This document shows positions 2,681 through 62,568 of a stretch of DNA of 64,000 bases, piece after piece. The notes below the pieces were generated by a model. That model was not told the DNA's origin, searched no databases, and saw nothing but the letters and a program-made list of their open reading frames with translations. Source of the stretch: Ginglymostoma cirratum (Eukaryota); contig JAHRHZ010000289.1 in the NCBI GenBank assembly GCA_024137785.1, positions 35,942,767 to 36,006,766 of the forward strand, given 5' to 3'. The translations under genes and the position numbers were made by a program. Position 1 is the stretch's first letter. Each line of letters starts with the position of its first letter.

Positions 2681-3938
2681 CAAAAATATCAGGGACTCTG
2701 GGTTTACTAGTCCTAAAAATTTCCATTATGCCACAGTGTACCCTGATTCAAATTCCATTATCTGCTATGATGGGATTTGAACCTGTGTCCCCAGGACATT
2801 ACTTAAGTTTCTGGGTTAATTGTCAAGTAAAAATACCACTGGGCCATCATCTCCCCCTTCCTCATCAAGCAAGATAACCAATACTGTACATAATATTCCA
2901 GATCTGGTGCCTGTACAACTGATTATTATAAACATTAATTAACATTGTTTACAAATAATATCATTTAAAACTAAAATAATCTGAACGACAAATTATGAAA
3001 AAGGTGCACTCAATTCCATAATTGCAACAAATTGTTCATTTGTGACATTTAGGTTTGTGGCTCTGGCATGGTCCTTAAGTTATCACTTACACTTCTTTAT
3101 GCCCATGGAAAAAAACACAGCACCGCCAATGCTAAAGAGAGGACCGTAATCCAAACTAAAATAAATTCCAGCTCATATTCTTTCTTCTGCTGTCTGGCAT
3201 TATGCTACTTTCTTTATTCCTTAATAACTATAATCCATCTTTTTCAGTATCTATCCATATCTGCTTATTGATCACGGTTTTCAGCTATCTAACATTCATC
3301 CCTGTCTGCCTTGTTGATCATTCCATTCTTCTATAACCTGGTAATCCCTCCATATATCTATCCACACATGTCAATGCAATCCTTATTGTGTTTCTCTGAT
3401 GGTAGCTCTTTTGCATATAGCTGGTTCTCACTTTATTGTCTCTATGTTATTAATCAGACATTCCTGAGGAGGTATATGCACGCACAAGCTAATACTGATT
3501 TTTCATTTTAAATGTATGTGATTGAAAATGTAACCTAGGCTGGCAATCTCAATGATAATACTAAGGGAATGCTGCAAAGATGGAGAGTCAGTATTGAGGG
3601 ACCAGCACACTAGCAGAGACTGGTGTGCTGGAAGTCAGCCTAAAACAATAAACCAATGTGGGCTAGGTGCTAAGCTGAGCACCACAACTGAATTCAGGGC
3701 CAACAGGCTGGTTGTAATGTTTGAGGGGGAGTTTTATCCCTAATAAATAGACATTCTTCCAAGTGCTTTGACCCTCAAGCAGTGTTTAATTATATCTAGC
3801 CAAAATTTCATAGCCTGGTACAGAGTTCCACATCATAGAGATATTATGGTCAGACCTTCAAGACTGGATATATGTGTTCGACTTCTTCAAGCCATTGCAA
3901 AAACTGTCTGACAGAAGACTAATCAGGCATATTAGGCA

Positions 3939-4070
3939 GAGATAGCAGGAACTGCAGACGCTGGAGAATCTGAGATAACAAAGTGCAGAGCTGAATGAAC
4001 ACAGCAGGCCAAGCAGCATCACATGCTGCTTGGCTTGCTGTGTTCATCCAGCTCTGCACCTTGTTATCCT
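3939..4070. mobile_element. Short inverted (hairpin) PLE-terminus insertion
   Basis: Arms ~3975-4019 and ~4023-4068 are reverse complements. Flanked by AGGCA(T/C)ATTAGGCA at 3925-3938 and 4071-4084. Confidence 0.8.
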
Positions 4071-4529
4071 AGGCACATTAGGCAATTTGGAAACCAATGT
4101 TGTTGGTGTTGATCACATTGCTGTGAATTTCTTTGGTCAGAAAAATAGGTTCAAATTAATGTTTGTTGAGAAACTACTTAAAAATTTGAATCTGGCTCTT
4201 TCACAACCTGATAAATGAGCTTGAGTCTCCTCATGTGTTCCATTGTGTTCGTGCCACAACTCCAGCAGAAATCACCTGTAGAAAGTATGGACTTGAATGT
4301 GTTGGATCTCTCCTTACTCTGTCAATTACCACTGGACATCATAAGATGCAGGAATGTACTGTTGTCTTTTTTTAAGCCAGCAATCACAAAGAAAGGAACA
4401 AAAATCCATTTCAACATTCTTACACAAAGTGCTGAATGGAGAATGAGTAGACTCTCGAGGGGTACACTAGATGGAGTATCAATGTTTCTTCTTCAATTTT
4501 GAGAAAACAACAGGTTCTACTCATAGACA

Positions 4530-4660
4530 AAGACAAAAGGTACTGCAGATGCTGGAGAATCCGAGACAACAAGCATGGGGCTGGATGAACACAGCAGGTC
4601 AAGCAGCATCATAGGAGCAGGAAAACTTGACGTTTCGGGCCTAAACCCTTCATCAGAAAT
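4530..4660 (-). mobile_element. Penelope-like element terminal repeat (pLTR) fragment, family 1
   Basis: Same GATGAACACAGCAGG(C/T)CAAGCAGCATC repeat as the copy attached to a GIY-YIG C-terminal remnant in the 51.2-51.6 kb element. Confidence 0.8.
4629..4656 (-). ncRNA. Minimal type I hammerhead ribozyme core (best-preserved copy)
   Basis: Minus strand reads CUGAUGA-A-GGGU(UUAG)GCCC-GAAAC-GUC. It has the full catalytic core, a 4-bp stem II and a palindromic ACGU stem III. Activity is untested. Confidence 0.6.
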
Positions 4661-7778: not shown

Positions 7779-7850
7779 CCTTCAGAACGTCAGCTTTCCT
7801 GCTCCTCTGATGCTGCTTGGCCTGCTGTGTTCATCCAACTCTACTCCTTG
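7779..7850 (+). mobile_element. Short PLE pLTR fragment, family 1
   Basis: CTTTCCTGCTCCTCTGATGCTGCTTGGCCTGCTGTGTTCATCC, flanked by TCAACAAT at 7771-7778 and 7851-7858. Confidence 0.75.
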
Positions 7851-9099
7851 TCAACAATGTTGTTATGATTGATTTCTGTGGTAATGGAAAATAGTTATCA
7901 CTAATTGTCCAATATAAATGCTTACTCCCCACCAGTGGGGAGGACTGTGTATCGGGGCTCAACAAAAGCTGAGAAAATGTGGGTTTTAAGAGCTTCTTAA
8001 AGGAGAATGAAAATCTGAAGAGGGGGTGGGTTTAGAGAGCCAATGCAGAGCAGGGAGCCTAAGTGGCTAAAGACATAATAAGATACAATACTATTGCATA
8101 AGCAATATGCAGTATTTTATGTAAATATAAAAGCTTTTTGAAGGACTTATATGTCTGCCCAATCTGCAGTGTTATCTTCTATTACTTATAATAATGGACA
8201 AAGTCACTTGTGCCCTTGAAAAGCTTTCTACCAGCGTTAACCTTCTTTGCAGAGGCTTATAAGGGTTCTGCAAAGTTGCTAAGTGATCCACACATATTTG
8301 CCTTTGTGCCCTTAAATATGCAACAACAAGTCCAGGGAATGCTGTGGCCACTTCAGAAATCACCACTAATAAACAGAACCCTCCCATCCCCATAAATTGC
8401 TGACTGTGGTATTGGATAACCATGTTATGTAAATGCAGAAGACAACAATGATGATGAAAAGCAGATTAATCATCTCTAGGACTAATAGTCATCAACCTTC
8501 AAATGAAGGTATGAACCACAGACAAAACATCCCACGCTTTTTCTCCAGGGCTCGAAAATAGTTAATGTTACCTATGAGTGTGAATAGTGTAGCATGTGTA
8601 ACATGTTCGATTTGCAAACATGGTTGCAAAATTGCAAGAGAAGCCCAACAAAACAATTCTTTTTATCTTGAGTTAAATTACAGTTATTGAATAAGTTTTT
8701 GCCTCTTCTCTCTGATCCAACAGGTAACCGATAATTATTAGGTTAGACAGTGACTATTCTACCAGAAGGTGAATAATCTGTTTGGCATTTCTAAGTGGTG
8801 TTGATGTGGAAACATTTGAATGAGAAGCTTTATATACGTATAGGATGAAGACTTATTCCATTTATACAATTGTAGTCCCATTAACATTGATTATATTTAC
8901 AAATTAATGTCTGAGTCCATACATGTGACTTGTAAGCTCTGATATTTGAACTCAGGATCTCTTGAACAATATGAACTTTCACAGGCGCAAGTGATATTAA
9001 TTCTCTAATACTTGCGCACTTTGAATGTTAGTCAGGGTGACAGGATGTTTATCATTATGGTGGCATGGCAAATTAATAAATATATTAAATATATATTTT

Positions 9100-9400
9100 A
9101 TATATCAGAAGGAGCAAAGTATAAAAGTACAAAAGCTATTCTAAATATTTATGTGACATTGGATAGGCCTCAGCTAGAGTATTATGCCCAATTCTTGGCA
9201 TCACACTATAGGCATGTCACCAAGCACTTCAAAAGTGTGGAGAGGAGATTGGTCAGAGGATACCAGAGTTGGAAGACTTCAGTTACGTAATGAAACTGGA
9301 TAAGTTGGGATTGCTGCTCAGAGCAGAGAAAGTTAAAGAGAAATTTATTAGAAACATTCAAAGTCTTAAAACATTTTAATAGAGTCAGCTTGACACCATT
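9100..9400 (+). mobile_element. Old CR1 LINE fragment
   Basis: Translates to YVTLDRPQLEYYAQFLASH, the CR1 LVRPHLEY motif. Confidence 0.7.
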
Positions 9401-9404
9401 CAAA

Positions 9405-10130
9405 ACAGAGTCAAAGAGTCATACAGCATGAAAACAGACTTTTCGATCCCATTAGTCCACGCTGACCATGTTTCTAAACTAAACGCGTCCTGCCTGCCTG
9501 CAGTTGGCCCATATCTCTCCAAACCTTTCCTATTCACATGCTCATCCAAATGTCTTTTAAATGTTTTAACTGCACCTGCAGCCACCTCTTGCCCTGGCAG
9601 TACATTCTACACACTAACCACCTTCTGTATAAAAAAGTTGCCCCTCACATTCTTTTTAAAACTTTCTCTTCTCACCTTAAAACTATGCCCTCTAGTTTTG
9701 AACTCCTCCACCTTAGGGAAAAGACCTTTGCTATTCACCTTATCCATGCCCCTCATAATTTTATAAAACTCTATAAAAGTCACCACTCAACCTCCTACGC
9801 TCCAGTGAAAAAAGTCCCAGCCTATCCAGCCTCTCCCTCTAACTCTAACCCTCCATTCCAGGCAACATCCTGGTCAATCTTTTCTGAACCTTCTTCAATT
9901 TAGTAATATCCTTCCTATAGCAGGGCGACCAGAACTGCACACATTACTTGAGAAGTGGCCTCACTAGTGTCCTGTACAACCTCAACATGATATCCCAACT
10001 CATATGCTCAAAGGCCTGAGCAATAAAAGCAAGCTGAATACCTCTTAGCCACCCTGTCTACCTGTGAAGCAACTTTCAAAGAATTATGTACCTCAACCTC
10101 TGTGGTCTCTCTTTTCTACAACACTACCCA
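9405..10130 (-). mobile_element. CR1 (HER1-like) LINE 3' part
   Basis: Minus ORF 9400-9585 reads TFKRHLDEHVNRKGLERYG, with a CR1 3' UTR and GACTCT-type tail. Confidence 0.85.
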
Positions 10131-10149
10131 GAGTAAACTGTTCAATTGA

Positions 10150-10540
10150 CATTCCATTCAACACTTTGAAATTTCACCATTGACATACAATGGTAGCTGT
10201 ACGTAAAATGCATTGCAAATAATAACCAAGATTACTTAGGCAGCATCTTCCAAAGCTGTGATCTCTGCCACTTAGAAGGGCAAGGGTAGCAGATACATCA
10301 GAATGTTATCATCTGCAAATAACCCTTTAAGGCACACATCATCCCGGCTTGGAACTATATCATAGTTCCTTCGTGTAACTGGGTCAAAATCCTGGAACTC
10401 CCTTTCTAAAGGCACAGTGGGTGTGCCTACACTACAGGGATTGCAGCAGATCGTCACCACTTTCTCAAGAACAATTAGGGGTGGGCAGTAAATGCTGGCC
10501 CAGCCAGCAATATCTACACATCCCATGAATGAAAAAAGAA
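10150..10540 (+). mobile_element. L2/CR1-group LINE 3' end
   Basis: Matches 28300-28650 and ends GGGCAGTAAATGCTGGCC...CCCATGAATGAAAA. Confidence 0.75.
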
Positions 10541-11716
10541 AAAGACATATTCCAGGTACATAATCCAGATTTTAAAATAATTTAAATAAAGCAAACTACA
10601 AAACTTATGCTGTGATTAGAGAATTGATAGCCATCAATGCAGAGTTAATTATTCAGTGTCAGCCACCCTCAACATTATTATTACGGAGGGTAAACAGAAA
10701 ATATTTTAGGCTTCTCATTGGTAACACCAGGTCGATAAATTGATTGGCCCACATAATGTTCATTTCATATCAACATTATTATTTCCTGGAAATGCTTCTC
10801 TATCTTTGAGGTTTAGAAGATAGCAATAACAGAGCAAACTGGATAGCTGTATCAGAGATGAACAACATTCACCAGCAACGGGTAAGGACACTTACATCTG
10901 CACTTACAAATAGAGGTTTCACTTTCCTAAAGATCCAGCCAATGAGTTATGTCAGAAAAAACTGGCACCTCTAACATATAAAATGTCACAGGCTATGTCA
11001 CAAAGACACATCAAAAGATGCCAATTTGAGGTGGAGAAAGCTAATGGGTCACCTACTGAAGATCTTTACAAATATGAATGATTTTGAAGGAGTGGACGCA
11101 AAGAGAAAGCTTCCTCTTGTGGGAAGAACACACCTAGAGGCCATCAAGACTTGATGGTCACCATGAAATCCAACAGATATTCAGATGAAATCACTTCACT
11201 TAAAAAGTGGTGAGAATGTGGAACTCACAATCAGAGAGAATGGTTGAAGTGAATAGGTACATTTGAGGAGAAGCTGGATGAGCGCTTGAGGGAGAAGGCA
11301 TTAGATGTTTATGATGATATGTCGAGACAAGGAAGCACATAAACACAGGCATAGACTGGTTGGGTTAAATGGCCTTTACTGTGCAGTGTACGTTAACATA
11401 ATCATACATATTCGCATCAAAAATCATCAATTTGGTCAAAAAAGCTGGGTTCTAATGGCCATAGAAACTGATAGAATTATAGAATTTTTACAGCATGGAT
11501 AGAGGCCTTTTGGCACATCATTTCTGTGCTAGTCTTCAAGCACCTATGTATTCCAATGCTCTTTCCCAGTCCTTGGCCTATCAGTGATAGTAGCTTCTTG
11601 GCTTATTCCCACCACCCTTTTTGAATAATGGTACTACAAATAGCCATTGCCCATCCTCTGAAACCACTCTTGTGGCCAGAGAGAATTTGAAAATTAATGT
11701 CAGAGCCCCTGCAATC

Positions 11717-12047
11717 TTGAGAGCTTACAGCCATGGCCTCAACATTGACTTCACCAGCTTCAAAATCCCTCTACCCCTAGCCTTATCCCATGTCCAGCCC
11801 ACCCAATCCTCCTCGCCTCCCTCACCTGATCTAACTTGTCTGTCTTCCTACTCACCTATCTGCTCCACCCTTGCCACAGACCAATCACAATAACCCCACC
11901 TGTATCCACCTATCGCCATCTCTCCTACCCTTCCCCCAGCCTGAATCCCTCTCCCTCTATTTATTTCTGGGCTCCCCTCTCCCTCCCCATCCTGATGAAG
12001 GACCTTCAGTCCAAAACATTGACTTTCCTGCTCCTCGGATGCTGTCC
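11717..12047 (+). mobile_element. Penelope-like element 3' end: GIY-YIG C-terminus remnant plus pLTR with decayed hammerhead
   Basis: Encodes HGLNIDFTSFKI, then a pyrimidine-rich UTR, then CTGATGA-A-GGAC(CTTCA)GTCC-AAAAC-ATT at 11992-12020. Confidence 0.8.
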
Positions 12048-13817: not shown

Positions 13818-14190
13818 CTGACTTTCCCCAGTCCCATTCAGACTATCCTCAGTCCCACTCCAGCTGTTCACAGTCCTAATCTAACTGCCCTCAGTCCCAC
13901 TCTGATTGTCCTCAGTCCTGATCAGATTGTCCCCAGTCCCGCTCTGGCTGTCGTCAGTCCTACACTGACTGTCCTCAGTTCCACTCTGACTGTCCTCAGT
14001 CCCGCTCCAGCTGTAACGGTACTCAGTCTCCCTCTGACTGCCCTCAGTCCCACTCTGACTCTCCTCAGTCCTGATCTGACTGATCTCAATCCCACTCTAC
14101 TTGTCGTCAGTCCCACTCCAGCTGTAACTGTACTCAATCTCCCTTTAACTGTCCTCAGTCCCAATCTGACATTCTTTAATCCCAATCCCA
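13818..14190. repeat. Degenerate 21-bp minisatellite with 27-bp variant units
   Basis: Consensus CTGACTGTCCTCAGTCCCACT, about 17 units. The variant CCAGCTGTAAC.GTACTCA.TCTCCCT occurs at 14007 and 14118. Confidence 0.9.
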
Positions 14191-17100
14191 ATAGGAGAAT
14201 TGAATCATATTGACCCCCTGACCTAAAGGCAATGGTAGCATGATGGATATACTAGGCCATCACTTTGTGCATTATGTTTGAGTATAATTCTGTTGCTGTT
14301 GGCCCCCATTGCCTCATGGTTGCCCAGTCTTGGGTTGCTAGATCTCTTTGAGTCTGCTTCATTTGGTAGGGTGCTAATGTCACACAATGAGATGAAGGGT
14401 GACCTCAGCATGAAGACAGGGCTTTGTCTCCACAGGCCTGTGCAGTGGTCAATCTTACTGATACACTCATGGACAGATGCATTTGTGGCAGGCAGGCTGG
14501 TGAGCTTGAAGTCAAGTATATTATTCACTTTTGTTGGTTCCCTCACCACCTGCCGCAGACCCAGCCTGGCAGCATATCCTTTAAGATATGACCAGCTTGA
14601 TTAGTCAAGCTGTTGCTGATCAACTGTTGGTGACGGACATTGATGTCTCCTATCTAGTGTACATTCTGCGACCTTGCAATCTTCAGTAATTTTTCCAAAT
14701 ATTATTGAACATGGAGGAGTACTGACTCGTGAGCTGTGGAAGGCAGTGTTATGGTCATCAGCAAACAGCATTTTTTGCCCACATTTTGTGATAACATAGT
14801 GAAGACTCCCAGAGCAACTCCCTCCTGACTGTATACCACTGTCCCACCTCGGCTAGGTTTGTCCTGTCAGTGGGATCGGACATGACATCCATGGCATGGT
14901 TAGTGACGGTGGTGTCTGGGATATTGTCTGCCAGGAATGATTCCATGTGTATAACTATTTCAGGTGTCACTTGACTCATCTATGTAACAGTACTGCTAAT
15001 ATTTGCACAAGCCCCTCGATGTTAGTAAGGAGGACTTTATAGAGTCAACAGTGCTGATTTGGCTATTGTCATTTCCTGTGCCTAGGTTGATGTCAGGTAA
15101 TATGATCAGTTCTATTCCTTTTGTGAGACTTCTTTTGCAGTTTGTTACAATTCTATGGATTGATAGGCTCAAAGAGGTTTAAAAGAGCTTAGCCATCTAT
15201 TTGTCTATTGAAACATCTGAACCTTTGCTTAATTGATAATTTTGTCTGTCTGATCTCTATCAATTTCAAAATGTTTCTTGCACAAGTTAAAGGAAAGTTC
15301 AAGTGACTACAGTTTCATCTATTAAAAATTCAAAGGGCCTGAATAATTGACATCATTATTTCACTATTTCTTAACATAGTAGAAAGTTAGCACTGAATGA
15401 CAGTATTTCAAAAGTCTTTTTTTAACACACTGAACTGTCACTGCTAGGTTCATTACTTCTACGCAGCTTAGAGTAGGTGAATAGGAATGAAAATGCCATA
15501 GGCTATCATGTGGTCATGAGGGACCAGGTGAAGAGCCATATCCTGACATGGGTGACATAAAGAGGACCTTTTGATCTTACCTATCAAAAGTTTCCTAATG
15601 CAGATGATTGTTTATTACAAATCAAATCATGACTCCTTAAAAAACTGGCCTGAATTCATAGAAATTACAGAGAAGCTTTCTGCAATGGAGCTGGTCATGT
15701 TTAGGTTCCCATTTGTTGCCTTGCATCCTTAAAAGGTCTTACCAAAAATTCAAAACCCTAGTAACGTGGTCAGAGATCCTGCCTGCCATTTCTAAAGAGC
15801 TCTCCAGTTATTGTGACATGGTGAAAGTTCAGGCTAGTGTCCTTAAAACAGTGAAGGAATCTGTAAATGTGGATTTGAATGATTGCCAGAGAATGACAAA
15901 TGGGGAATCCAGTGATTGTGGATAGAGGAATGAAGAGAAAGGCAGGGTCCAAACAGTGAAAGTGGCATGCAAGGGCATTGAGATGAATATTACTCAGCAA
16001 AAGCAGGATTTCAAGGTGAGATCCAAAAACTAATGCTCTACATATGAAGAAATTGACAAGTAGGAGGAATAGGAGGTTAAGACCTAGCCAATGACTGATC
16101 ATTAGGGCTCTGGCTATCTGGGTGCATTGTGGTTTGTAAAGTCAAAACAGCAAGAGGAAAATTTGACAAATGGGATAATTAAAGGCCAGTATTATGACTG
16201 TCAGAGTAATGTCGGAGAAACATGAATAAAAAAAAATCTCTTGAAGAATCATATTGGACTTGGGAAATTAACTCCATTTCTCTCTCCACAGGTTTCCAGC
16301 ATCCTCAGCGTTTTGTTTTTATGAGTCAAATAGGGGTGGGTGGGTGCTGTCTCAGAGGTGGAAGAAAACAATCTTGGTTACAAATCAGACGTTATGGTGT
16401 CAAAATTTGAACGCTTTGCTTGTCCTCAGTGTCCCCGGGTTAAGAAGGGAAAATCAGCCAGATTCTGGCAGAAACCTGCAATTTAGTGATAGTCACCAGA
16501 TGTAGCTTAGTTGTGATTTGAATAGTGTACTGACACTCCTCACTTGGGTGCAAAAATGAGAAATAGAAACTTGATCAGGATACACTCAGATCTTTGATTC
16601 TTATGACACAGCGTTCCAACATTAAGCTTCAGGAGCAATGAAGAACGTACTGGAGGGAAAAGATGACCTGTGGTACAGCCATGTGAACATTAAAAGGAAT
16701 AGTCAGATGTTTCCCCCTGCTAATGATGATAAACTATATTCCCAGAGGCTGAATCTTGATCCTATTGATAATTAGTTATCCTTTATGTAAAGTTAATATT
16801 TCTGTCATACAGATGATCTAAGATAACCATTATTTTAAATACCTACTTACGTTTCTTAATTCCTGATGAGGGAGGAACATCGAATCGCAGCATTTAAAAA
16901 AAACTATTCCCTGACCAATGTAAGTGATAAATGTCAAAGTCTTTGAATAAATATATGACCACAAGACTGAATAATCTTTCATTTCTCCCAGTTGGGTTCC
17001 TTCCTCTTATGAAGATATTGTTCCATTCTAAGTAAGATATCCATTAATTCTTAAACAAGGGGCTATTTTTTGTGTGTTACTTTAACAATGAGAGTGGTGC

Positions 17101-18400
17101 ATTATTGGTGGCATAGACATGATTCCTTAAGCTTCATTCATCCCTCACTCACTGACTTTCAATATTTGTCTGATAATACCCAACACCAGACTGACACTTT
17201 CAATTTTAATCCTTTGCATTCATAGCAAAAAATTCTCTAGCACAGGAGAAACAAAACCAAGATTGTGCAGTTCATTTGATAGGTCAATGAGGATCAGTGC
17301 ACAGGTTTCAACTATGTAGAATCTGCATTCATGACTTAGGGAAAGACTCGGAGTAATGTATTTAAATTTGTTGACAAAGCTAGGAGGCAATGTAAGCTGC
17401 AAGGAGGACACAAAGATGCTGCAAAGAGATGAAGACAGGCTGATTAGGTTCAAAGTGACAGATAGAATATAAATGTGGGGATTTTGGAAAAGCATCACAT
17501 TTTTTTAAAAAATCATGAGACTTGTGAATATTGATTTTGAGAAAGACATGGATGTAGCCACACAAGAAGATTGTGGAAACTTGGTAGTTAGGTGAAATAT
17601 TGACAAGAGAGGGGATACAAAGATGAGTTTAACTGTGGCATCCTCCTGGATGGGGCAGAAATGGCAAATGATGACCCTTTAAAAGTAGAGGCTGATATGA
17701 TGTGGTGCCATACTTGTGGACTGGTAACATAACTTTTTGACATGAGTCAATAATTGCCTTTTTGTAAGATAAATGAGTTGACCAATATGCTAATACGGTA
17801 TGAGTGAGTTATCTCATCTTGAAACTGAGCAATATAGACCAAATATGTTGCAGCCTTGCTTTCTAGTCAGGGCTGTATATGTGGGTCTCATTTAAGGCCT
17901 GGTGCAATGACAACTACTGGCTTTAAAGCCTTTGGTCTAGGCCATGCTTGTTACTTCTGTTCACTGCTTAGTCATTTGTTTCTGCTTGACATTTAACAGC
18001 ATTAATCTCACTGAATCATACCATTGGAAACAAACTGAACTGGGCTACACTGTGAACTATGAGAGCAGGTCAGAATCTAGGAAATCTGCAGCAAGCAACT
18101 GCACGTTGTGTGCTATAATATTGTGCACTTGCCTGCATGAAGGCAGCTTTAATAAAGCTCAAGAGGTCCAAAATCATCCAGGACAATGCAGCTCATTCAA
18201 TCAGCGCCACTCCCTCCACCAACAGTGCACAGTGGCAGTAGATACACTGCAGTAACTCCTTACAAAGCTGCAACCGCTGCACTATCCTCACTAGGAAATA
18301 TATTTTTTTTGCTGTCAAGTCTTGGGATTCTGTTCCTAACAGTATTGTGGATGTACCTCTAACCCATCATCTTCAATGGTTCAAGCAGCCAGCTCATCAC

Positions 18401-24355: not shown

Positions 24356-24755
24356 NNNNNNNNNNNNNNNNNNNNNNNNNNNNNNNNNNNNNNNNNNNNN
24401 NNNNNNNNNNNNNNNNNNNNNNNNNNNNNNNNNNNNNNNNNNNNNNNNNNNNNNNNNNNNNNNNNNNNNNNNNNNNNNNNNNNNNNNNNNNNNNNNNNNN
24501 NNNNNNNNNNNNNNNNNNNNNNNNNNNNNNNNNNNNNNNNNNNNNNNNNNNNNNNNNNNNNNNNNNNNNNNNNNNNNNNNNNNNNNNNNNNNNNNNNNNN
24601 NNNNNNNNNNNNNNNNNNNNNNNNNNNNNNNNNNNNNNNNNNNNNNNNNNNNNNNNNNNNNNNNNNNNNNNNNNNNNNNNNNNNNNNNNNNNNNNNNNNN
24701 NNNNNNNNNNNNNNNNNNNNNNNNNNNNNNNNNNNNNNNNNNNNNNNNNNNNNNN
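24356..24755. other. Assembly gap (400 N)
   Basis: Run of N characters. Confidence 1.
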
Positions 24756-24860
24756 TTCCTGCTCCTCTGATGCTGCTTGGCCTGCTGTGTTCATCCAGCT
24801 CTACACCTTGTTATCTCAGATTCTCCAGTATCTGCAGTGCCTACTATCTCTGAAACATCT
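24756..24860 (+). mobile_element. PLE pLTR family 1 fragment abutting the gap
   Basis: TTCCTGCTCCTCTGATGCTGCTTGGCCTGCTGTGTTCATCCAGCTCTACACCTTGTTATCTCAGATTCTCCAG. Confidence 0.85.
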
Positions 24861-25859
24861 TAACTAAATTGCTTTTCCATTAAATGTTAAGTTTTACCCT
24901 TATTGATATTTCCATTAGTTTGTCTGCAATCTGCCAACTGTCTGTATTAGTCGCTCTTAAAGCCTTAAATGTCTTTAAAACTGTAAATGTCCTATATTAC
25001 TTCTGGGTCCACTGGAATTCTCTGTTCTTTGGTCTATTCGAATTTTTACCATTGTTATCTTGTGCTGTTAAGCAATCATCTCCACTATGGGCACAGTATT
25101 TATGGTGAACCTAAATTGAATTCCAACCCACACCACTGATCACCATTTTGTACGTGCTGCACCGTCAGTATGTGGCTTGGAGTAGTTGGCTGCCACCATC
25201 CTCTTTCCTGACTGGATCTACTCTGTATCAAGTAGTAGAGGAGAACCACAGGTAAGTCTTAATGAGAAGTGACTCTTGTTTTAAACAGGATGTACTTTAC
25301 TGCAAGATAGAAATCAGACACAGGTTACACTAGCAAGTCTGACATTGTGATTAAGTCTATTAGGAGATGTAGGATGAAGACCTATGTACATAAGCTCTCA
25401 AGATGTTCTGCCTTTTCTCCAAAGTCCCATCATCAGATTACGTGGATCTTAAGTCAATCCCCAATATCTCCCTTTCAGAACAATTATGCGATAAAACAGC
25501 TGGCACTGAGTTTGGCACATTGGAATCAACATGCCAATGCTGATATTTATGGAGCCTCTCCTCAACTCTGTTTCCATCTGTGGAGAACTCCAAAAAAGGT
25601 TAGTGTTTTGTAACTACCTCATAAATGCCTTTCTAATATTTTTACATGATAACCAAATTTGGCAACAATACATTCAGTCTATTCATTGAAACCGTTGTAA
25701 AAGGTCGAGGACCAAGTACTGAATATGTGGCATGCCACTCATTTTGCCATCCAGGAAATGACCAACTCTCTGATTCAATTCTTTGTTTCAGACATACAGG
25801 GAAGATGTCAAGCTCTCTGTCTTCAACTCTATCTCCACCATTTCAATGTCTCTATTGTT

Positions 25860-26559: not shown

Positions 26560-28650
26560 CCTTCCATCTCAGCGCCTTCAATGGGTTGCTACAGGCAATG
26601 ATCAAGTGATGATCTGCAAACGTGCGCAGTCAATGATAACCACAAATTGCAGTCCTATCACATCCAGTCGTGAATGGTGGTGAGCAATTATACATGTCAC
26701 TGGAGGAGGAGGCTCCACAAATATCTCCATCCTCAATGATGAAAGAGCCCAACGTATCAGTGCAAAAGACAAGGCTGGTGCATTTACAACAATGGATGAT
26801 CCATCTCAGCCTCTTCCAGTGGTCCCTAGCATCACAGTGAACAGTTTTCAGTCAGTTCGATTCATTCCGCATGATATCAAGAAATGGTTGGAGACATTGG
26901 ATGCTGCAAAGGCTATGGAGCCTGACAACATTCTAGCAATAGTACCAGAGGCCTGTGCTCCAGAACTTGCCGCTCCCCTAATCAAGTTCTTTCAGTACAG
27001 TTACAGCAATGGTATCTACCTGACAATATGGAAAATAACCCAGGTACACAAAAACAGGACAAATCCAACATGGGTAATTACCGCCCCATCAGTCTACTCT
27101 CGATCATCAGTGAAGGGATGGAAGGTGTCATCAGCAGCACTATTAAAAAAACACCTGCTCAGCAATAACTTGCTCATTGACACCCAGTTTGGGTTTCACC
27201 AAAGCTACTCAGCTCCTGACCTCATTACAGCTTTGGTTCAAACATGGACAAAAGAGCTGAATTCCAGAAGTGAAGAGGGAATGACAGCCCTTGACATCAA
27301 AGCTTCCTTTGACTGAGTGTGATATCAAAGAGCCCTAGCAAATATGGGCTCAATGGGTATCGGGGGCGAGCTCTCCATTAGTTGAAATCATAACTGGCAC
27401 ATAGGAAGATGGTTGTGGTTGTTGGAGGTCTGTCATCTCAGCTCCAGGATATCTTTGTAGGACATCAGGGTAGTATCCTAGCTCCTACCATTTTCAGCTG
27501 CTTCATTAATGACCTTCCCTCCATCATAAGATAAGAAGCAAAATGTTCGGCACCGTTTGCGACTCCTCAGATACCGAAGCAGTCCATGTTCAAATGTAAC
27601 AAGATCTGGACAATATCCAGATTTGGGCTGACAAGTGGCAAGTGACATTCGTGCCACACAAATGCCAGGCACAATCTTAACAGCACCTCTTTACACACAA
27701 CAATGTTACAATCACTGAATCCCCCGTTACCAATATCCTTGGGGTTACCATTGCCCAGAAATCCAACTGGACTCACCACATAAGTACAGTGGCTACAAGA
27801 ACAGGTCAGAGACTAGGAATACTGCGAAGAGTAACTCATCTCCTCATAGAATTATAGAATACCCCACAGTGCGGAAACAAGCCATTCAGCCCAACAGGTC
27901 CACACCGACCCTCCAAACAGCATCCCACCCAGAACCATCTCCCTACCCTATTCCTGTAACCCTGCATTTCCTGTGGCTAATGCACCTACGCATCCCTGAA
28001 CACTATGGGTTATTTAGCATTGCCAATCCACCCAACTGGCACATCTTTCGACTGTGGGAGGAAACCAGAGCACCTGGCGGAAACCCACCTCCTGACTCCC
28101 CAAAGCCCTGTCTACCATCTACGAGGCATAAGTCAGGAGTATGATAGAATACTCCTTGCTTGCCTGGATGAATGCAACTGTATCCCAGCACTCAAAAAGC
28201 TTTACACTATCCAGGCCAAAGCAGCCTGCTTGATTGGCACCACTTCCACTAGCATCCACTCCCTCCATTCCTAACACTCAGTAGCAGCAGTGTCTAGTAT
28301 CTACAAGAAGCACTGCAGAAATTCAGCCAAAATCCTTAGACTGTACCTTCCAAATCCATGACCACTTCCATCTAGAAGGACAGGGCCAGCAGATACATGG
28401 GAACACCACCACCTGCAATTTCCCCTCCAAGCTACTCACCATCCTGACTTGGAATTATATCTCGCTCCTTCACTGTCACTCATCAAAATACTGGAATTCT
28501 GGAATTCCCTCCATAAGGGCATTGTGGGTCTACCTGAAGCATGCCGATTGAGAAGTCAGCTCGCTACCACCTTCTCAAGGGCAAGGGCAACTGGGGCTGG
28601 GCAATAAATGCTGGCCAGCCAGTGATGCCCACAGCCCATGAATGAATAAA
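26560..28650 (+). mobile_element. L2/CR1-group LINE, RT to 3' end, decayed
   Basis: ORF 26792-27316 reads KAMEPDNI...QFGFHQ...ALDIKASFD. Downstream is QGSILAPTIFSCFINDLP, and the tail is CCCATGAATGAATAAAA. Confidence 0.9.
27845..28085 (-). mobile_element. 5'-truncated HE1 SINE inserted in the LINE
   Basis: HE1 tail and V-domain, flanked by CA(T/C)CTCCT at 27837-27844 and 28086-28093. The LINE sequence resumes after it. Confidence 0.8.
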
Positions 28651-40039: not shown

Positions 40040-40248
40040 TAACAAGGTGTGGGGCTGGATGAACACAGCAGGCCAAGCAGCTTCATAGGAGCCGGAAAGC
40101 TTGAAAATGGTTTTCTGATGAAGGGTCTAGGCCCGAAATGTCAAGCTTTCCTGCTCCTATGATGCTGCTTGGCCTGCTGTGTTCATCCAGCCCCACACCT
40201 TGTTATCTCGGATTCTCCAGCATCTGCAGTACCTTTTATCTCTGATAC
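40040..40248. mobile_element. Inverted PLE pLTR insertion with hammerhead core
   Basis: Inverted arms. CTGATGA-A-GGGTCTAGGCCC-GAAAT-GTC at 40115-40142. Flanked by AATTCTTGGTCAGTGT at 40024-40039 and 40249-40264. Confidence 0.85.
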
Positions 40249-40690: not shown

Positions 40691-42907
40691 TGACTGGAGA
40701 ATGCAACTTATAAGTGAAGAGGTTCAGTGGAGTGGAGTGAGCCAACCCCATTAAAAAGAAGTAAAAAAAAGTTTATAAATAGTCACATTCTCATTCTTTC
40801 TCGAGTTTCACATCACCATCTGCCTTCTGAAATATGAAGAATCAGCATGGTTAATTTTTCCTACTTTGAAAATTGCTGACCAAACAGAAGCCACAGCAGT
40901 AGTCACTGAAGAGAGTGAGAAGGTGCCCTGTCTGGAGAAGGGTCTAGCCCTGAAACATCAGCCTTCCTGCTCCTCTGATGCTGCGTGGCCTGCTGTGTTC
41001 ATCCAGCTGTACGCCTTGTTATTTCTGTTTTTCCAAATGCCCACTTCTGCTCCTTCCATCCCCACCACGATTTGATGAGAAGACTCAACACTGACTGAGT
41101 TCACACCTTTCCTTCAGTAATGAGCTTCTACTTCCTGTCAAAGAGGGTTCAGAATCCAAAAAAAAACTCTCTTCCCGATTCAGCTCTTCACTGTGAAAAT
41201 CTGTCCCCTAGTCTCAACACATGAAGAATCATTCTTAAACTCCTCTCCCCCTTTGCTTTTAAAATCTACTTTCAGATCTTTAAATCTGCCCCTCAACGAA
41301 GCTTTTAGTCACCCCATAGATTACTTCTCCTTTAGCTCAACATTTATACTTTCCTTACACATTTGTTGAATGCATTGGAACATTTTCCCAAATTCAGTCT
41401 TTGTCACAATGGCAATGTGAATAATTTTAGGTATCTACCTTCAAAAGGGCACTACTGCATTATTGGGAGAAGTGGCAAGTCTTAAGCCTGGGTTGTCTTG
41501 GGGAAGGAGGAGTGAAAAAAAACCATCAAATTGTGTTTGGTTGTGTTGAAGGTGACATGCCAACCCTTAGTATGGCCGGTGGAGGTAACTAAACTAGGTA
41601 CTTGCCTCAGACAGAACCATCCCAGGTGTAACAGGTGCGGAGAGCGGACTTCTAGATAAAGCAAGTAATATTAAATCAAGCTAAATTCTTTACAAAGGAG
41701 CTGGATAAACATCTGTTAGAGAACAAGATTGAAATATATAAGGATGAAATTAGACAACGTTGGCTGGAAATTAAATGCTGAATGAACCTTGCCAGTATGT
41801 GCAGCACGTGAAATCTACTATGAATGAATCTACTATACTGTAAGACTAGATTAATAATGTGACTTTTTCATGTGAAATATTTTGGGTGACATGCTTGAAC
41901 GTTGCTGGGATTTCTTTATTCATTCATGAAACGTGAGCATCGCTGACTAGGCCAGCATTTATTGCCCATCTCTAATTGCCCAAAAGGTGGTGGTGGTGAA
42001 CCACCTTGCTGAACCATCGCAGTACATGTGATGATGGAAGGACACCCATCACACTCTTCAGTGATGGGGGCACTGAATTTTTAGAGTGATGGTCAGGTCC
42101 TGGTACAGTGATCTGCAGGAGTCAAAATATGAGATACTTGCACAGAGTACCCAAGGTCCTGCGTCCATTGTAGTTATATCAAGTACCAGGGTAAGCATTG
42201 GTCAGTGGTACACCCAGGCTATTGATGGTGGGTCATTCGATGATACAATACTGTTGGGCATCAAGGAGAGGTGGTTAGATTCTCTCTTGTTGGAGAAGAT
42301 CATATTGGACATTTGTAGTGTGTGAATGATACATCTACTTATCCACCTGAATCTGTCTGTCATTTAGATGCTGTAGTCAGTCTCATAATTCCTGGAATAG
42401 GTAAATGGGAATGTTGAAATGTGTCAGTCTTTATACTTTGGATCTCTGTCCAGTGTCTCATGTTGAAAATATTGTTTGTGAGTATGTGAAATGTGAGATT
42501 GGGAAAGTGCAGAGGGAAATCTGCATAAAGATTTTGCTCTTTTCCCATATTTAACAGGTTACACCACATTTGCTGTGACATCATGTAGTAATAGCAGTTC
42601 CAGGTAAATTAGTCAAATGAAAATGATCTGTTGATATGCTGTGATGTTCTGCAATTTAAGGTACTGTATTGAAATTAGTAAAATGAAATATCAGATGAAC
42701 GTCTGCATTGCAAAGTGTGTTCTGGAAATCGAAACCCAATTCTAAAGTAGCATTGTGAATCTCTCCCTTCTTAAGCTTACTGTTCTTTACCAGACCAGTT
42801 AGTTGCTAAACTTCTTTAAATTGACCAGGAACTCCTGTTGGATGAGCCTCTCCCTATGTTTTAAACCTGATATATCTGTTTTCTGTGGTTTAGCTGGCAG
42901 GCTGCAA

Positions 42908-48870: not shown

Positions 48871-49100
48871 GGGAAACAAAAACAAATTTGCTTGGAAAGC
48901 TCAGCAGATCTGCCAGCACCTGTGAAGAAAAAAAATCAGAGTTAACGTTTTGGATCCAGTGACCCTTCCTGTTCTGAGGAAGGGTCACCGGACCCAAAAC
49001 GTTAACTCTGATATTTTTGTTCACAGATGCTGCCAGACCTGCTGAGCTTTTCCAGCAGCTATGTTTTTGTTCCTGATTTACAGCATCTGCAGTTCTTTTG
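48871..49100. mobile_element. Inverted PLE-terminus insertion, family 2, with hammerhead core
   Basis: Inverted arms centred ~48970. CTGAGGA-A-GGGTC(ACCG)GACCC-AAAAC-GTT at 48974-49003. Flanked by GTTTCACTCAGT at 48859-48870 and 49101-49112. Confidence 0.8.
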
Positions 49101-49857: not shown

Positions 49858-50792
49858 TGGGTTAGTAAGCTTGCAGAAGACACCAAACTTGGAGGTGCAG
49901 TGGACAGCAAAAAAGGTTACCCTAGAATACAACGGGATCTTGATCAGATGGGCCAAGGGGATGAGGAGTGGCAGATGGAGTTTAATTTAGATAAATATGT
50001 GGTGCTGCATTTTGGAAAATCAAAATAGGGCAGGACTTATACACTTAATGGTAAAGTTCTGGGGAGTGTTGCTGAACAAAGAGACCTTGGACTGCAGGCT
50101 CATATTTCCTTAAGAGTGGAGTTGCAGGTAGATGGGATCGTGAAGAACGCATTTGACATGCTTGCCTTTATTGATCTGTGCATTGTGTATAGGAGTTGGG
50201 AGGTCATGTTGCAGCTGTACAGGACATTGGTTAGGCCACTTTAGGAATACTACATGTAATTGTGGTCTCCCTGCTATAGGGAGAATGCTGTGAAAGTTGA
50301 AAGGGTTCAGAAAAGATTTACAAGGGTGTTGCCAGTGTTAAAGGGTTTGAGGTATAGGGAGAGGCTAAACAGGTTGGGTCATTTTCCCTGGAGCGTCGAA
50401 ATGTCAGAGGCTGAGAGGTGACTCATAGAGGTTTATAAAATCATGAGGGGCATGGATAGGGTAAAGAGACAAGGTCTTTTCCCTGGGGTGGAGGAGTCCA
50501 AAATTAGGCATAGGTTTAAGGTGAGAGGGGAAAGATTTAAAATGGACCTAAGGGGCAACTTTTTTCGTGCAGAGGGTGGTGCATGTATGTAACGAGCCAC
50601 CAGAGGAAGTGGTGGAGGCTGGTACAATTACAACATTTAAAAGGCATCTGAATGGGTATACGAATAAGCAGTATATGGGCCAAATGCTGGCCAATGGGCC
50701 TAGATTAATTTAGATTATCTGGTTGGCATGGATGAGTTGAACTGAAATGTCTGTTACCATGTTGTTCAGCTCAATGACTCTATGACTCTATG
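49858..50792 (+). mobile_element. CR1 LINE, RT C-terminus to 3' end
   Basis: VSKLAEDTKLGG...QRDLDQM...WQMEFNLDK; ends GACTCTATGACTCTATG. Confidence 0.9.
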
Positions 50793-51162
50793 TTCCCTGG
50801 ACGAGAGAGTTTTAGTTCTGAAGAGAGGTTGGGTAGACTTGTTGTTTACCTGGGAGCAAAGCAGACTGAGGAGGACATGGTTGAGATGTATAAAATTATA
50901 TGAGGAGCATAGATTGGTTAGTCAGGGGACGGAGAGAACAATAACCAAGGTGCATAGATTTAAGGCAAGGAGCAGAAGGTTATGAGTGGATATGAGAATT
51001 TTTTTTCACACAGGGTGGTGGGAATCTGGAATTCTATAAAGATGGTAGAGGCAGAATCCCACATAACATTTAAGAAGCATTTAGATGTGCACTTTCAATG
51101 CCAAGGCATAAAAGACAAGACAATGGGCCAAGTGCTGGAAAATGGGATTAGAATAGTTAGGT

Positions 51163-52002
51163 AACAAAGTGTAGAGCTGGATGAACACAGCAGGCCAAGC
51201 AGCATCATAGGAGCAGGAAAGCTTGACGTTTTGGGCCTAGACCCTTCATCAGAAATGGGGGAGGGAAAGGGGGTTCTGAAATAAATAGGGAGAGAGGGGG
51301 GAGGAGGATAGAAGGTGGATAGAGGAGAAGATAGGTGGAGAGGAGGCATACAAGTCAAAGAGGCGGGGATGGAGCCAGTAAAGGCGAGTGTAGGTGGGGA
51401 GGTAGGGAGGAGGTAGGTCAGTCCAGGGAGGACGGACAGGTCAAGGGGGCAGGATGAGGTTAGTAGGTAGGAAATGGGGGTGCGGTTTGAGGTGGGAGGA
51501 GGGGATAGGTGAGAGGAAGAACAGGTTAGGGAGGCGGGGACGAGATGGGCTGGTTTTGTTGATGCAGTAGGGGGAGGGGAGATTTTGAAGCTTGTGAAAT
51601 CCACATTGATACCACTAGGCTGCAGGGTTCCCAAGCTCAAGCCGCACCCCCATTTCCTACCTACTAACCTCATCCCGCTCCCTTGACCTATCCATCCTCC
51701 CTAAACTGACTTATCTCCTCCCTACGTCCCCACTTACACTCACCTTTACTGGCTCCATCCCCGCCTCTTCGACTTGTCTGTCTCCTCTCCACCTATCTTC
51801 TCCTCTATCCACCTTCTATCCGCCTCCCCCTCTCTCCCTATTTATTTCAGAACCTCCTTCCCCTCCCCCATTTCTAATGAAGGGTCTAGGCCCGAAACAT
51901 CAAACTTTCCTGCTCCCATGATGCTGCTTGGCCTGCTGTGTTCATCCAGCTGTACACCTTGTTATCTCGGATTCTCCAGCATCTGCAGTTCCTATTATCT
52001 CT
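51163..52002. mobile_element. Penelope-like element 3' end with long inverted pLTR, inserted in a CR1 tail
   Basis: Minus strand LGTLQPSGINVDFTSFKI (GIY-YIG C-terminus). Arms ~51163-51486 and ~51642-51965. 17-bp direct repeat GATTAGAATAGTTAGGT at 51146-51162 and 52003-52019. Confidence 0.88.
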
Positions 52003-53069
52003 GATTAGAATAGTTAGGTGTTGTTTTTGGCCAGCATGACACGATGGGCCAAAAGGCCTTTTTCCCTTGCTTTTGACGTGTGTGACTCTGTGAAGATATG
52101 CTGCAGTGCTGCATTTCTGCATATGTATATTTACCTAGTCCACTTAGTGATGGCATTGCCCATAAACATAGCCTAACAAAAAGATCAAAGATTAATAGCA
52201 TTACCCTATCGTGGTTGCTTTCATCAAGAGGGTATGGAAAATATTCCACATTGTCCAAGATCTTACAGTCGATCTTAAGCAATGGGTGGTGGGCTGACGA
52301 GGGAGGAAGTACGGAAGGTGTGCCGTGGAACCTAGTTGGCAGAGAGCCTTTCCAAGTATTCAGTGTGGGTCCCATTTTCTTATCAGCTTTGGAGAAGGAA
52401 TGGACAATGACCTGGAATTCAGCCTTATGAAGTACCAGACCTGTGGCAGCATTCTGAACCACTTTCTCAACCTTAATAAAATTCAGACGTATTTCTGGAC
52501 AATATTTCAAGCTGCTCAATATTTTCATTGTTGGATCTGATGAAAATTTCAGGAGTGTTTATTAACAGTAGCCCTGTTTGGCTGAGTGGAGCTTTCGTTA
52601 GTTCAGTGGTGACCTCTGTCCCACTCAGGCCCAGCTAAAGCCCTGCAGACAGTGACAATTGACCCCAGATGTGGATCAACTCTATTTTGAACATTGGCTC
52701 TTAGTTGACAGCATTTAAAATAATTTTGAACAGGATCTTTAGCTCTTTACCAGCTTTTGATCCACCATTAGTATGACAAAGTACATTTCAGTTTTTCTCA
52801 TAGACATTTGGATTAGATACTCGTGTTTTTACGAGCACTGGCTGAGAGTAGAGCCTGTACCAGCTCCATCAAGGATTGAGAGTACCACTTTGCACAATTT
52901 GCTAGTAAAATGAGGGCTCTGTAATTTCAGCTCCATGTAACTAGCAGGTAAATAGAATTAGTGTTTAGTTTGGTGTATGTTTGGTTGACACAGACATGGT
53001 GGGCCAAAAGGTCTGTTTCTGTACTATGAGACTCTATGACTTGCTTTTAAGTTACATTTTTCTTTTATT

Positions 53070-57698: not shown

Positions 57699-58536
57699 TG
57701 AGACCATAATGGAATTTAATAACAGTTGTTACTTAACTTTTTATTAAAGGGGGAAAACTGTAAAATATATAAGCAGATGTGTAGGCAAAATTCTTATCTT
57801 ATACATTATACATCTTATACAACCTTATACATTATATTATTTTGGACAATAGGACATAGCAGAATAGTCATGTATATATTTAAACCATGTAGATCCCATG
57901 TTAAAAACTCAGCCTGTGTGCCTTGTAAGATGATTTGGATGGAACAGCCATTGATTGGAGTGGGATAAAATCAGCTAGGATTCCTGCTCCTGATTGCTCA
58001 CCTTTGATGATTTCGTGATATTGTATCATATTAAAAGAATTGCTATGTAAATACATCCTTTGCTGTTATCCAATATTGCTTGGCTGGAAAGTGCCTATAT
58101 GTCAATATCAGGTAAGAACAGGTCAGACTTAGCTTTGCTGCCAGGTTAAATGTGCTACTATGGTGGAATGTTCAACATTGATGTCCTAGGATTAAGAACA
58201 CTTATTTGGCTGAGCGAGTGGAACCATAATTGCACATTTGGAACCATCCATCAGTTTTTAGGAGAGAAAGGATGAGAGGAAGATAACAAAAAAAGTCAAT
58301 AAAATGAAAAACTAGTAAGTGTCTAATGAGGGGGGAGGGTGAGTGCTGATCGTCTAGACTTCATTTTACGCTCTGACAGATGTTTAAACTTTGCTTCTTA
58401 GCCTCTCTGCCAAATGTTGAAGGTGTAGCAGTATATTCCATACTGCAAAGCACTTCACAGCATTAGTAGCAATAATCAGACAGAGTGGGCTGACATTCTT
58501 AAGACATGTCCATGAAAGCATTTATCCTGAATGTTA

Positions 58537-58604
58537 GAGATAACAAGGTGTGGAGCTGGATGAACCCAGCAGGCCAAGTAAGGATGCCGACCCCACTGCG
58601 AAAC
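58537..58604. mobile_element. Tiny rearranged PLE insertion
   Basis: pLTR piece plus inverted AAGGATGCC/CACTGCGAA pieces, between TTATCCTGAATGTTA repeats at 58522-58536 and 58605-58619. Confidence 0.75.
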
Positions 58605-60409: not shown

Positions 60410-61770
60410 CACCAGCTGCAGCTCATGTTGGCAGCATTCTCATCTCTGAGTCATGAGATTCTGTGTTCAAGTGCCACTCCAGGGCTCAAGCAGAGACCTG
60501 ACACACTGTTGTGTTACTGAAGGAGTACTGTGCTTTCAGAGACACCTTTTGGTTGAGACGTTAAATGAAGACCTCATTTAACTATAACAGCAAATTACTG
60601 TAAATGCTGGAATCTGAACTGGAAACGAAATGCTGCAGATCACAGCGAGTCAGGAAGCATCCATGACGAGAGAACAAGCTAATGTTTTTTTTCTAAGAGA
60701 TAACAAGGTGCACAGCTGGATGAACACTGCAGGCCAGGCAGCATCAGAGGAGCAGGAAGGCTGACGTTTCGGGCCTAGACCCTCCTTCAGAAATGGGGGA
60801 GGGGAACAGGTTTCTGAAATAAATAGGGAAAGAGGGGGAGGCGGAGAGAAGATGGATAGAGGAGAAGAGGGGTGGAGAGGAGACTGACGGGTCAAGAGGC
60901 GGGGATGGAGGTTGTTCCGGAGGGAGGAGGGTAACTTCTTCAGGGTAGGCATCCTTAGAAGAGGCTTCGCAGTGAGGTTAAAATTGTTTCAGAGATAGTA
61001 GGAACTGCAGATGCTGGAGAATCTGAGACAACAAGGTGTAGAACTGGATGAACACAGCAGGCCAAGCAGCAGAGGAGCAGGAAGGCTGACGTTTTGGGCT
61101 TAGACCCTTCTTCAGAAATGGGGGAGGGGAAGGGGGTTCTGAAATAAATAGGGAGAGAGGGGGAGGTGGATAGAAGATGGATAGAGGAGAAGATAGGTGG
61201 AGAGGAGACAGACAGGTCAAAGAGGCGGGGATGGAATTTGTGCCTCTCCCTCCTCTATCCATCTTCTATCCGCCTCTCCCTCTCTCCCTATTTATTTCAG
61301 AACCCCCTTCACCTCCCCCATTTCTGATGGAGGGTCTAGGCCTGAAACATCAGCCTTCCTGCTCTTCTGATGCTGCTTGGCCTGCTGTGTTCATCCAACT
61401 CTACACCTTGTTGTCTCAGATTCTCCAGCATCTGCAGTTCCTAATTTTTTTTAAGCTTGCTTTCTCTCTGGATGCTGCTTGACCCACTGATCTGCAGCAT
61501 TGTTTGTTTTCAGCCCCGTTTAGCTGCCTGGGTGGATGTAAAGATCCTATAACACAATTTTAAAGACAAGGGGCGTTACTCATGTAATTCCTTAATTAAC
61601 ATCACAAAAGCAGATTATCTAATCATTATCACATGTGGAAGTTTGCCTTGCGCATTTCGGCTGCAGCATTTCCTACATCACAACAGTGACTAGGTTTCAA
61701 AATGTACTTCATTGCTCTAAAGAGGTGTCCAGTAGTTGTGAAAAGTGCTGTGTGAATGTAATTCCTTTAC
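60410..61770 (+). mobile_element. DeuSINE-like SINE split by two nested PLE-derived insertions
   Basis: SINE 5' half at ~60410-60580 and 3' half at ~61515-61770. Inverted repeat arms of another PLE-type family at ~60585-60690 and ~61455-61513. Confidence 0.65.
60697..61445. mobile_element. PLE family 1: two tandem pLTRs (-) plus one inverted pLTR (+)
   Basis: Hammerhead-like cores at 60763-60790 (-), 61088-61115 (-) and 61324-61351 (+). A short MPTLKKLPSSLRNNL stretch lies between the tandem copies. Confidence 0.85.
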
Positions 61771-62469: not shown

Positions 62470-62568
62470 AAGATAACAAGGTGTAGAGAGCTGGAGGAAC
62501 ACAGCAGGCCGAGCAGCATCAGAGGAGCAGGAAGGTTGACATTTCGGGCCTAGACCCTTCTTCAGAAA
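62470..62568 (-). mobile_element. PLE pLTR fragment with near-intact hammerhead, inserted in a DeuSINE-like SINE
   Basis: Minus CTGAAGA-A-GGGTCTAGGCCC-GAAAT-GTC at 62538-62565. Flanks ACT(A/G)AAATA. Host SINE spans ~62230-62700. Confidence 0.8.

Follow-up and report, generated by a model that had tools for sequence, protein, structure and literature searches.

The window analysed here, a 64-kb stretch of shark DNA, contains on its minus strand at 4629-4656 a motif that we read, with a probability of about 70%, as a minimal type I hammerhead ribozyme in the pseudo-LTR (pLTR) of a retroelement of the Penelope-like type (PLE) likely belonging to the Neptune clade. In the same reading the copy that carries it, at 4528-4660, is a 5'-truncated relic without a promoter, likely the cDNA of the first ~135 nt of the element's mRNA. 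Read directly from the window, the minus strand from 4656 down to 4629 is CUGAUGA-A-GGGU(UUAG)GCCC-GAAAC-GUC (28 nt), letter for letter the hammerhead that an earlier note on this DNA had placed there.

All parts of the motif are on the minus strand. The core box C3-A9 (CUGAUGA) and the extra A after it lie at 4649-4656, helix II with its G10.1-C11.1 pair at 4637-4648 (from sequence and fold), and the segment 4629-4636 holds G12 to A15.1, the palindromic ACGU (4633-4630) and C17 (4629). The strands assigned to helix I are AUUU at 4657-4660, of which 4660 is the predicted transcription start of the long copies, and, from the pairing analysis, AAGU at 4625-4628. The catalytic core (CUGANGA ... 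GAAA ... UH) is in type I order and comes with helix II, the extra nucleotide between A9 and position 10.1 and the G10.1-C11.1 pair, confirming the type I topology proposed earlier. An extra A at this place is attributed to the CChMVd viroid hammerhead. Helix III has no loop, also as proposed: ACGU at 4633-4630 is self-complementary and would form this helix only between two copies. Established hammerhead numbering predicts the cut between 4629 and 4628. Stem I had been described as weak, with about 3 bp. The weakness holds; this copy can pair over 4 bp, the subfamily to which it belongs over 3 bp and the other subfamily over 2 bp (one of them G-U). The UUAG of loop II is a minor variant of the family's usual CUAG.

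Four traits define the minimal hammerhead (PMC4209133): helix III lacks a loop, positions 15.2-16.2 are palindromic, one more nucleotide follows position 9, and G10.1 pairs with C11.1. The shark motif has all of these. The missing loop III and the extra A pointed out in the earlier note are present, but they are defining traits of the published type and so not novel; the motif falls within the kind of type I hammerhead already described in 2014, and the family is an added case. Its closest counterpart is the Acropora digitifera Neptune motif (PMC4209133, Fig. S3), which is near-identical, sharing CUGANGA with the extra nucleotide, a helix II of 4 bp, GAAAC-GUC without loop III, the type I order, G10.1-C11.1, the location in the pLTR and AGC after the cut site. 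The two differ in helix I, made of U-A/U-G only (2-3 bp) in the shark and of GCU/AGC in Acropora Neptune. As for the minimal hammerheads of PMC4209133, most copies are solitary and truncated. Cartilaginous fish are absent from the entries of Table S1 and Fig. S3 of that paper that were examined, and a literature search gave no report of shark PLE hammerheads among the papers listed, although Lunse et al. 2017 may list cartilaginous fishes.

We also searched for the pattern outside the window. A scan of 30 of the 64 parts of genome_contigs gave at least 123 matches in at least 121 loci, mostly chance bacterial ones; 26 pass thresholds of helix II ≥4 bp and helix I ≥2 bp, and 16 deduplicated families, under slightly differing filters, entered the promoter tests below. 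Eleven of the 12 metagenome loci matching the pattern belong to a coral-like family with a near-identical motif; a PLE endonuclease end precedes the motif in one locus (L009), and PLE coding sequence is also found upstream in another (L001). The viral_contigs gave 0 motif matches and no relative of the shark protein P0001 introduced below. Complete PLE-type minimal hammerheads also occur in contigs assigned to bacterial MAGs (L034, L037, L048, L057, L058, L063, L065, L068 and others, and also L071, L084 and L089), in AT-rich, repeat-like DNA; these contigs are likely animal host DNA binned into MAGs. For loci picked by the pattern itself, core conservation would be a circular argument, and we gave it no weight.

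Coincidence, with a repeat that happens to look like a hammerhead, is very improbable. It would sit well with the lack of a hammerhead match in Rfam at E ≤ 1 in the window, where the only Rfam matches are to miRNAs and snoRNAs, below gathering score and caused by the inverted pairs, and with a covariation on the MAFFT alignment that is not above shuffles (130/500), the helix I columns of this alignment being misaligned by an indel. It does not account for the match to every feature of the published minimal hammerhead consensus at the expected position of a PLE. Nor does it account for the helices: anchored on the core, they change on both sides between families, with 2.1:1.1 as U-A or C-G, 2.2:1.2 as U-A, U-G, C-G or G-C, and helix II pairs alternating between G-C and A-U and between U-G, U-A and C-G. 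Furthermore, among the deduplicated genome_contigs matches a helix II of at least 4 bp predicts a helix I of at least 3 bp (17/27 vs 17/86, P = 6e-5).

Within the window, the eight further cores listed in the earlier note were all recovered. With up to three mismatches the pattern occurs at eight places (4629, 40115, 51225, 51874, 60763, 61088, 61324 and 62538) and gave 0 matches in each of 100 dinucleotide shuffles. The ninth core, at 40932, is more decayed and came from a relaxed scan, which also found two on the plus strand, at 11992 and 48974, that belong to related families. This gives 11 cores in 64 kb, a high density, taken from one window and not a genome count. The large ribozyme population suggested before, about a dozen per 64 kb, is borne out as a number, but 8 of the 9 copies are damaged and the population is mostly one of relics. 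The repeat carrying the core is the commonest self-repeat in the window, with ~15 arms.

The eight other copies differ from the intact core of 4629-4656 at 15 positions. Nine of these 15 defects are transitions of the CpG type and fall on 4 of the 26 sites scored, which bears out the CpG decay noticed earlier; the CpG observed/expected ratio of the window is 0.23. Only the copy at 4629-4656 keeps all catalytic nucleotides together with the ACGU palindrome, the former being kept in 3/9 copies and the latter in 4/9, and the majority letters of both subfamilies have both intact. From one genomic copy to another the core varies no less than a flanking block downstream (6/99 vs 8/252 differences), as expected from neutral decay after insertion. 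Between families the core and the helix pairings are kept.

The copies are of several shapes. The one at 4528-4660 (minus) starts 4 nt before C3 and ends in a tail of ~35 nt; it is a solo arm, and no target-site duplication (TSD) was found around it. A head-to-head inverted pair with a 17-bp TSD extends over 51165-52001. Its minus arm holds the last ~17 codons of a GIY-YIG endonuclease, a TATA-like box at -35 and the core 51225-51252 (G12A); its plus arm, with tail, holds the core 51874-51901 (G5A). In the inverted pair at 40046-40244 (16-bp TSD) the plus arm begins 3 nt before the core 40115-40142 and the minus arm begins at about the cleavage site. At the junction of this pair, 40095-40115, the minus strand passes from the element's -6..-1 to U16.1 and what follows it, which looks like a template jump over helix I that left out the core. 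The third pair of the family, at 3937-4068, has no core and a 14-bp TSD with one mismatch. In all three pairs one arm has the tail and the other lacks it.

Repeat alignments also resolved a composite at 60697-61443, a partial tandem with an inverted plus arm. The tandem portion, 60697-61235, is the single one of the family in the window and has two minus-strand pLTR units whose cores, 61088-61115 and 60763-60790, are 325 nt apart and both damaged; the plus arm has the core 61324-61351. On the minus strand, the main ORF of the following tandem unit likely begins with the ~75 nt past the tail (60912-60985), a piece of insufficient length for confirmation by tblastn. By eye, 60620-60697 and 61445-61520 look like an inverted pair of another PLE-like family around the composite, which would then be nested near the place of the outer family's ribozyme. 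Shorter copies are found at 62471-62568 (minus; core 62538-62565), starting 3 nt before C3 at an ambiguous junction, and at 40931-41021 (plus; decayed core 40932-40959, from the relaxed scan). The flank of the former, 62569-62577, equals 8 nt of the element's -32..-25, so that this could be an internal deletion and not a 5' end. One at 7785-7853 (plus) starts inside the core at about A14, and a core-less one lies at 58533-58578 (minus; repeat alignments). At 24756-24864 (plus) only the 3' part of a copy with its tail is left, the 5' part being lost in a 400-base N gap (24356-24755) directly before it, which fits assembly trouble at an inverted PLE structure. Two other families are represented: an older related PLE piece of ~71% identity at 11716-12044 (plus), with an endonuclease C-terminus, a TATA-like box at -34 and a decayed core at 11992-12020, and an inverted pair at 48880-49100 (14-bp TSD, one mismatch), with a core at 48974-49003 (G12A) and a plus arm that by eye begins about 5 nt before C3.

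The identification of the repeat as a PLE stands, an endonuclease C-terminus that matches shark PLE proteins being found upstream of the core. The minus strand of 51230-51637 matches a Stegostoma tigrinum protein (P0001) in tblastn with E = 2e-22, and in a search with the translation of 51165-51636 (minus) P0001 was the single match among 3187 candidates; the window also matches the Rhincodon protein P0002 (77% over 31 aa, E = 8e-10), which makes a carpet shark the likely source of the DNA. Relative to the coding sequence the ribozyme is in sense orientation, ~370 nt downstream of the endonuclease C-terminal peptide. RT-like motifs are visible by eye in P0001, and its GIY-YIG match is weak and below the cut-off (E = 0.0019); among its homologues, P0095 has RVT_1 above the cut-off and P0008 has RVT_1 and GIY-YIG, both below it. 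The window itself contains only ~17 endonuclease codons and no RT. The 558 homologues of P0001 include proteins of Rhincodon, Chiloscyllium, Hypanus and Mobula, and coral proteins at about 50% identity are the nearest named relatives outside elasmobranchs, with an almost identical ribozyme; slow evolution or horizontal transfer might account for this.

A CX2-5CxxC linker before the endonuclease marks Neptune, and also Nematis, PLEs (PMC8557442), and CX4CxxC was present in 4 of the 5 proteins printed, all of them relatives of the window's element. A wider count of CX2-5CxxC (117/120) was dropped, as the endonuclease's own CxxCxxC matches it too. From its sequence relatives we assign the element to the endonuclease-bearing PLEs and likely to the Neptune clade. 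In 51095-51637 (minus) the endonuclease frame has no stop at the usual end. It remains open for ~180 codons, across both the ribozyme and the pyrimidine-rich pLTR, and P0001 of Stegostoma and P0002 of Rhincodon likewise read past this end, which may just reflect the scarcity of stops in C/T-rich DNA.

The architecture of the copies is also that of a PLE. Truncation at the 5' end, partial tandems, inverted pairs, an optional tail of 30-40 bp and TSDs are PLE hallmarks (PMC8557442), and all occur among the family's copies in the window. The TSDs of the four inverted pairs, three of the core family and one of another, measure 17, 16, 14 and 14 bp vs a maximum of 11 in 296 random pairs. In the window alignments copies end at one of two 3' points 34-37 nt apart, and the same two ends were found, among the records listed, in contigs of public runs, at 51968 (958 records in X19, 151 in X2, 22 in X9) and at 52002-52005 (X2 and X9). 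These public data consist of contigs only, the RNA status of X2, X9 and X12 is our guess, and the 188,136 X19 contigs that fit the 400-nt stretch are not a copy number. PLE reverse transcription starts internally at two sites (PMC11167929), which would explain the tail. The Poseidon element PAc of Anolis carolinensis (Frangieh et al. 2024, PMC11167929) also has two fixed 3' ends, a tail of 30-40 bp, insertions extended from both target strands and a minimal hammerhead in the pLTR. It differs in that its clade has no Cys linker, in that it is an active element whereas the shark copies are relics diverged by 8-15%, and in that its ORF begins inside helix II, whereas the only in-frame AUG of the shark core opens a short frame. 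Whale shark introns have been reported to be rich in PLEs (10.1101/443036).

Many of the copies are only ~100-140 bp long, and the short units could in principle be a non-autonomous retrozyme or SINE family replicating via small circular RNAs. Retrozymes of the non-LTR class, which share the type I hammerhead and an origin from PLE pLTRs, have been reported in one chondrichthyan (bioRxiv 10.64898/2026.07.22.740005). We regard such a nature of the short units as unlikely. A retrozyme consists of tandemly arrayed units that each carry a ribozyme, whereas the shark copies are dispersed, truncated or inverted, and the window has no array of the unit, only the one partial tandem with its two damaged cores. 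Moreover, the 5' ends form a nested truncation series that reaches into the endonuclease ORF, and the short copies have no upstream promoter.

The predicted folding is not favourable to cleavage. In the monomer a competing helix of 5 bp hides the core, the probability of helix I is ~0 and z = 0.34; a single molecule cannot close a helix III without loop, so cutting is predicted only as a pair. The predicted double hammerhead has -1.9 to -5.3 kcal/mol, 23-30 above the best fold, and is the weakest of 11 motifs, 8 other motifs having -5.9 to -23.3; these energies omit tertiary contacts and only their ranking is meaningful. The loop CUAG, unlike that of Acropora, makes helix II a 12-nt near-palindrome (e.g. 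40123-40134) that in the model would favour a competing intermolecular duplex, and loop variants in other runs break it. Published activities of minimal hammerheads are low even as dimers, and PAc was cleaved only with its protein, its insertion did not need cleavage and the uncleaved RNA was the template (PMC11167929). With a helix I of 2-4 bp and the weakest predicted dimer, unaided cleavage by the shark family is doubtful.

One could go further and suppose that the motif derives from an active PLE hammerhead but that the family amplified after helix I had eroded, no longer cleaves and carries the remnant in its pLTR. Helix I has 2 bp in the subfamily that dominates the public contigs (loose-end consensus, among the rows listed) and the dimer energy ranks last; besides, Naiad PLEs thrive without ribozymes (PMC8557442) and ribozyme mutants leave insertion in vitro unaffected (PMC11167929). 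This is a possibility to be taken seriously but is not the one we favour: the majority letters of both subfamilies keep what catalysis and the palindrome require, an extra A has lengthened helix I to 3 bp in the AAG subfamily, minimal hammerheads with a helix I of 2-3 bp have been published (PMC4209133, Fig. S3), and nearest-neighbour energies ignore the tertiary contacts of the core and any help from proteins.

The 5' ends of short copies often fall at the edge of the ribozyme. In the alignments 4 of 14 window arms start at -4..-1 relative to C3 (two adjusted by eye). For a fixed site P = 3e-4, but the window taken by itself is marginal when a cluster at any site is allowed (P = 0.04), and of the four junctions those at 62568 and 40112 are ambiguous. 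In the coral-like family 6 of 10 independent loci start at -8..-4 (binomial P falling from 0.014 to 8e-6 as the mean length assumed rises from 30 to 130 nt) and none ends between -9 and -26. Long copies carry promoter-like motifs upstream, TATTTA at -35 and CCATTT with A at -4 (YYANWY) in 5 of 5 from the window, and TATAAA at -38/-37 with A at -7, found by eye and missed by the regular expression, in the coral-like ones. The TATA-like box is 30-31 nt from the predicted start in both lineages. This is the usual distance from TATA to start. Among the 16 further families, viewed before the bin -45..-31 was fixed, 4 have a TATA-like box in it vs 0.7 expected (P = 0.004) and 12 have none, and Inr-like motifs are not enriched (6 vs 4.9, P = 0.34). 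In other invertebrate families the 5' ends are mixed, with both arms of L068 at about -6/-7 by eye, one arm of L071 at -9 and others farther upstream. Starts do not pile up at the 5' edge of the ribozyme among the loose ends listed in public-run contigs, and a slight rise in depth there is not usable, as these are contigs and not reads. A spliced leader was rejected, the four short copies sharing no upstream exon.

On this evidence we lean, by a modest degree, towards transcription starting at helix I and reverse transcription running off the end of the uncleaved capped mRNA. The cut site is where no more than 1 of 14 window arms begins, and the template would therefore usually have been RNA that had escaped cleavage. 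Alternatively, the ends may cluster through structure or microhomology, the reverse transcriptase stopping or switching template after a hairpin, or U-rich ends annealing to an AT-rich target. In the model the core folds as one hairpin in monomers, start site and helix I base coincide in the shark family, a second shared 5' end is seen at -121/-122 in the window alignments, and palindromes at inverted PLE junctions have been attributed to self-priming (PMC3846280). The coral-like arms make this less probable than a transcription start, extending 1-5 nt past the 3-bp helix I up to the predicted +1 and leaving the interval from -9 to -26 empty, and so does the constant spacing of the TATA-like box in both lineages. 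Putative TATA and Inr motifs have been noted before in the rotifer pLTR: Pen2a of Adineta vaga has TATA-like and Inr-like motifs and inverted pLTRs with TSD and tail, with a spacing of 20 bp, and no link to a ribozyme or mapping of truncation points to a start site is made in the text examined (PMC3846280). Speaking against the proposed start, the Penelope of D. virilis has a TATA-less promoter and starts ~120 nt upstream of the end of an intron that abuts the ribozyme (PMC2377424; PMC4209133). Our literature search gave, among the papers listed, no report of a transcription start at the edge of a ribozyme.

If transcription does start at helix I, the TATA-like box would direct it to about 4 nt before C3 and the ribozyme would be nt 5-32 of the mRNA. 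Reverse transcription would begin about 95 or 130 nt downstream and run off the capped end. Two copies, whether on separate transcripts or as the 5' and 3' pLTR within a single one, could pair via ACGU and helix I, swapping helix I strands, forming two cores and cutting after GUC, which would release unit-length RNA or remove the capped leader. Given the weak fold, the PLE protein would likely be required for cutting, and the usual template would likely be RNA left uncut. More speculatively, in a Neptune-type lineage of corals and sharks a conserved TATA might let transcription begin at helix I, on its 5' strand; the hammerhead, lying within the first 32-35 nt, would act as a decapping switch triggered by dimer formation, and the 5' junctions would be a fossil map of template ends left by uncleaved capped RNA retrotransposed in vivo; this larger picture we hold only tentatively.

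Ribozyme type and PLE location have been known since 2014, and the finding mostly extends the hosts to elasmobranchs. The function of PLE hammerheads has been called unclear (PMC8557442). If the ribozyme sits at the mRNA cap and 5' junctions record template ends, a single many-copy shark or coral genome would test cleaved against uncleaved mobilisation, and the subfamilies with a helix I of 2 and 3 bp would offer a natural comparison to show if amplification depends on activity. Were the decapping switch real, the junctions would give a genome-scale measure of what PLE ribozymes do.

The rest of the window offers a few minor observations. Pfam on the 76 ORFs of at least 88 aa gave no host exon and a single low-complexity match, which is spurious and due to a 21-bp minisatellite of 16 copies at 13818-14170. 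Three regions, 26684-27316 (plus), 9400-10540 and 50058-50790, we take to resemble the RT and 3' ends of CR1/L2-type LINEs; they have no Pfam match. In addition, tblastn weakly aligns 17595-17813 (minus) with the RT-thumb/linker of PLE proteins (E = 4e-4), as an old internal PLE fragment, and 16235-16325 (plus) looks by eye like the end, now decayed, of one more PLE-like family and begins close to that family's core.
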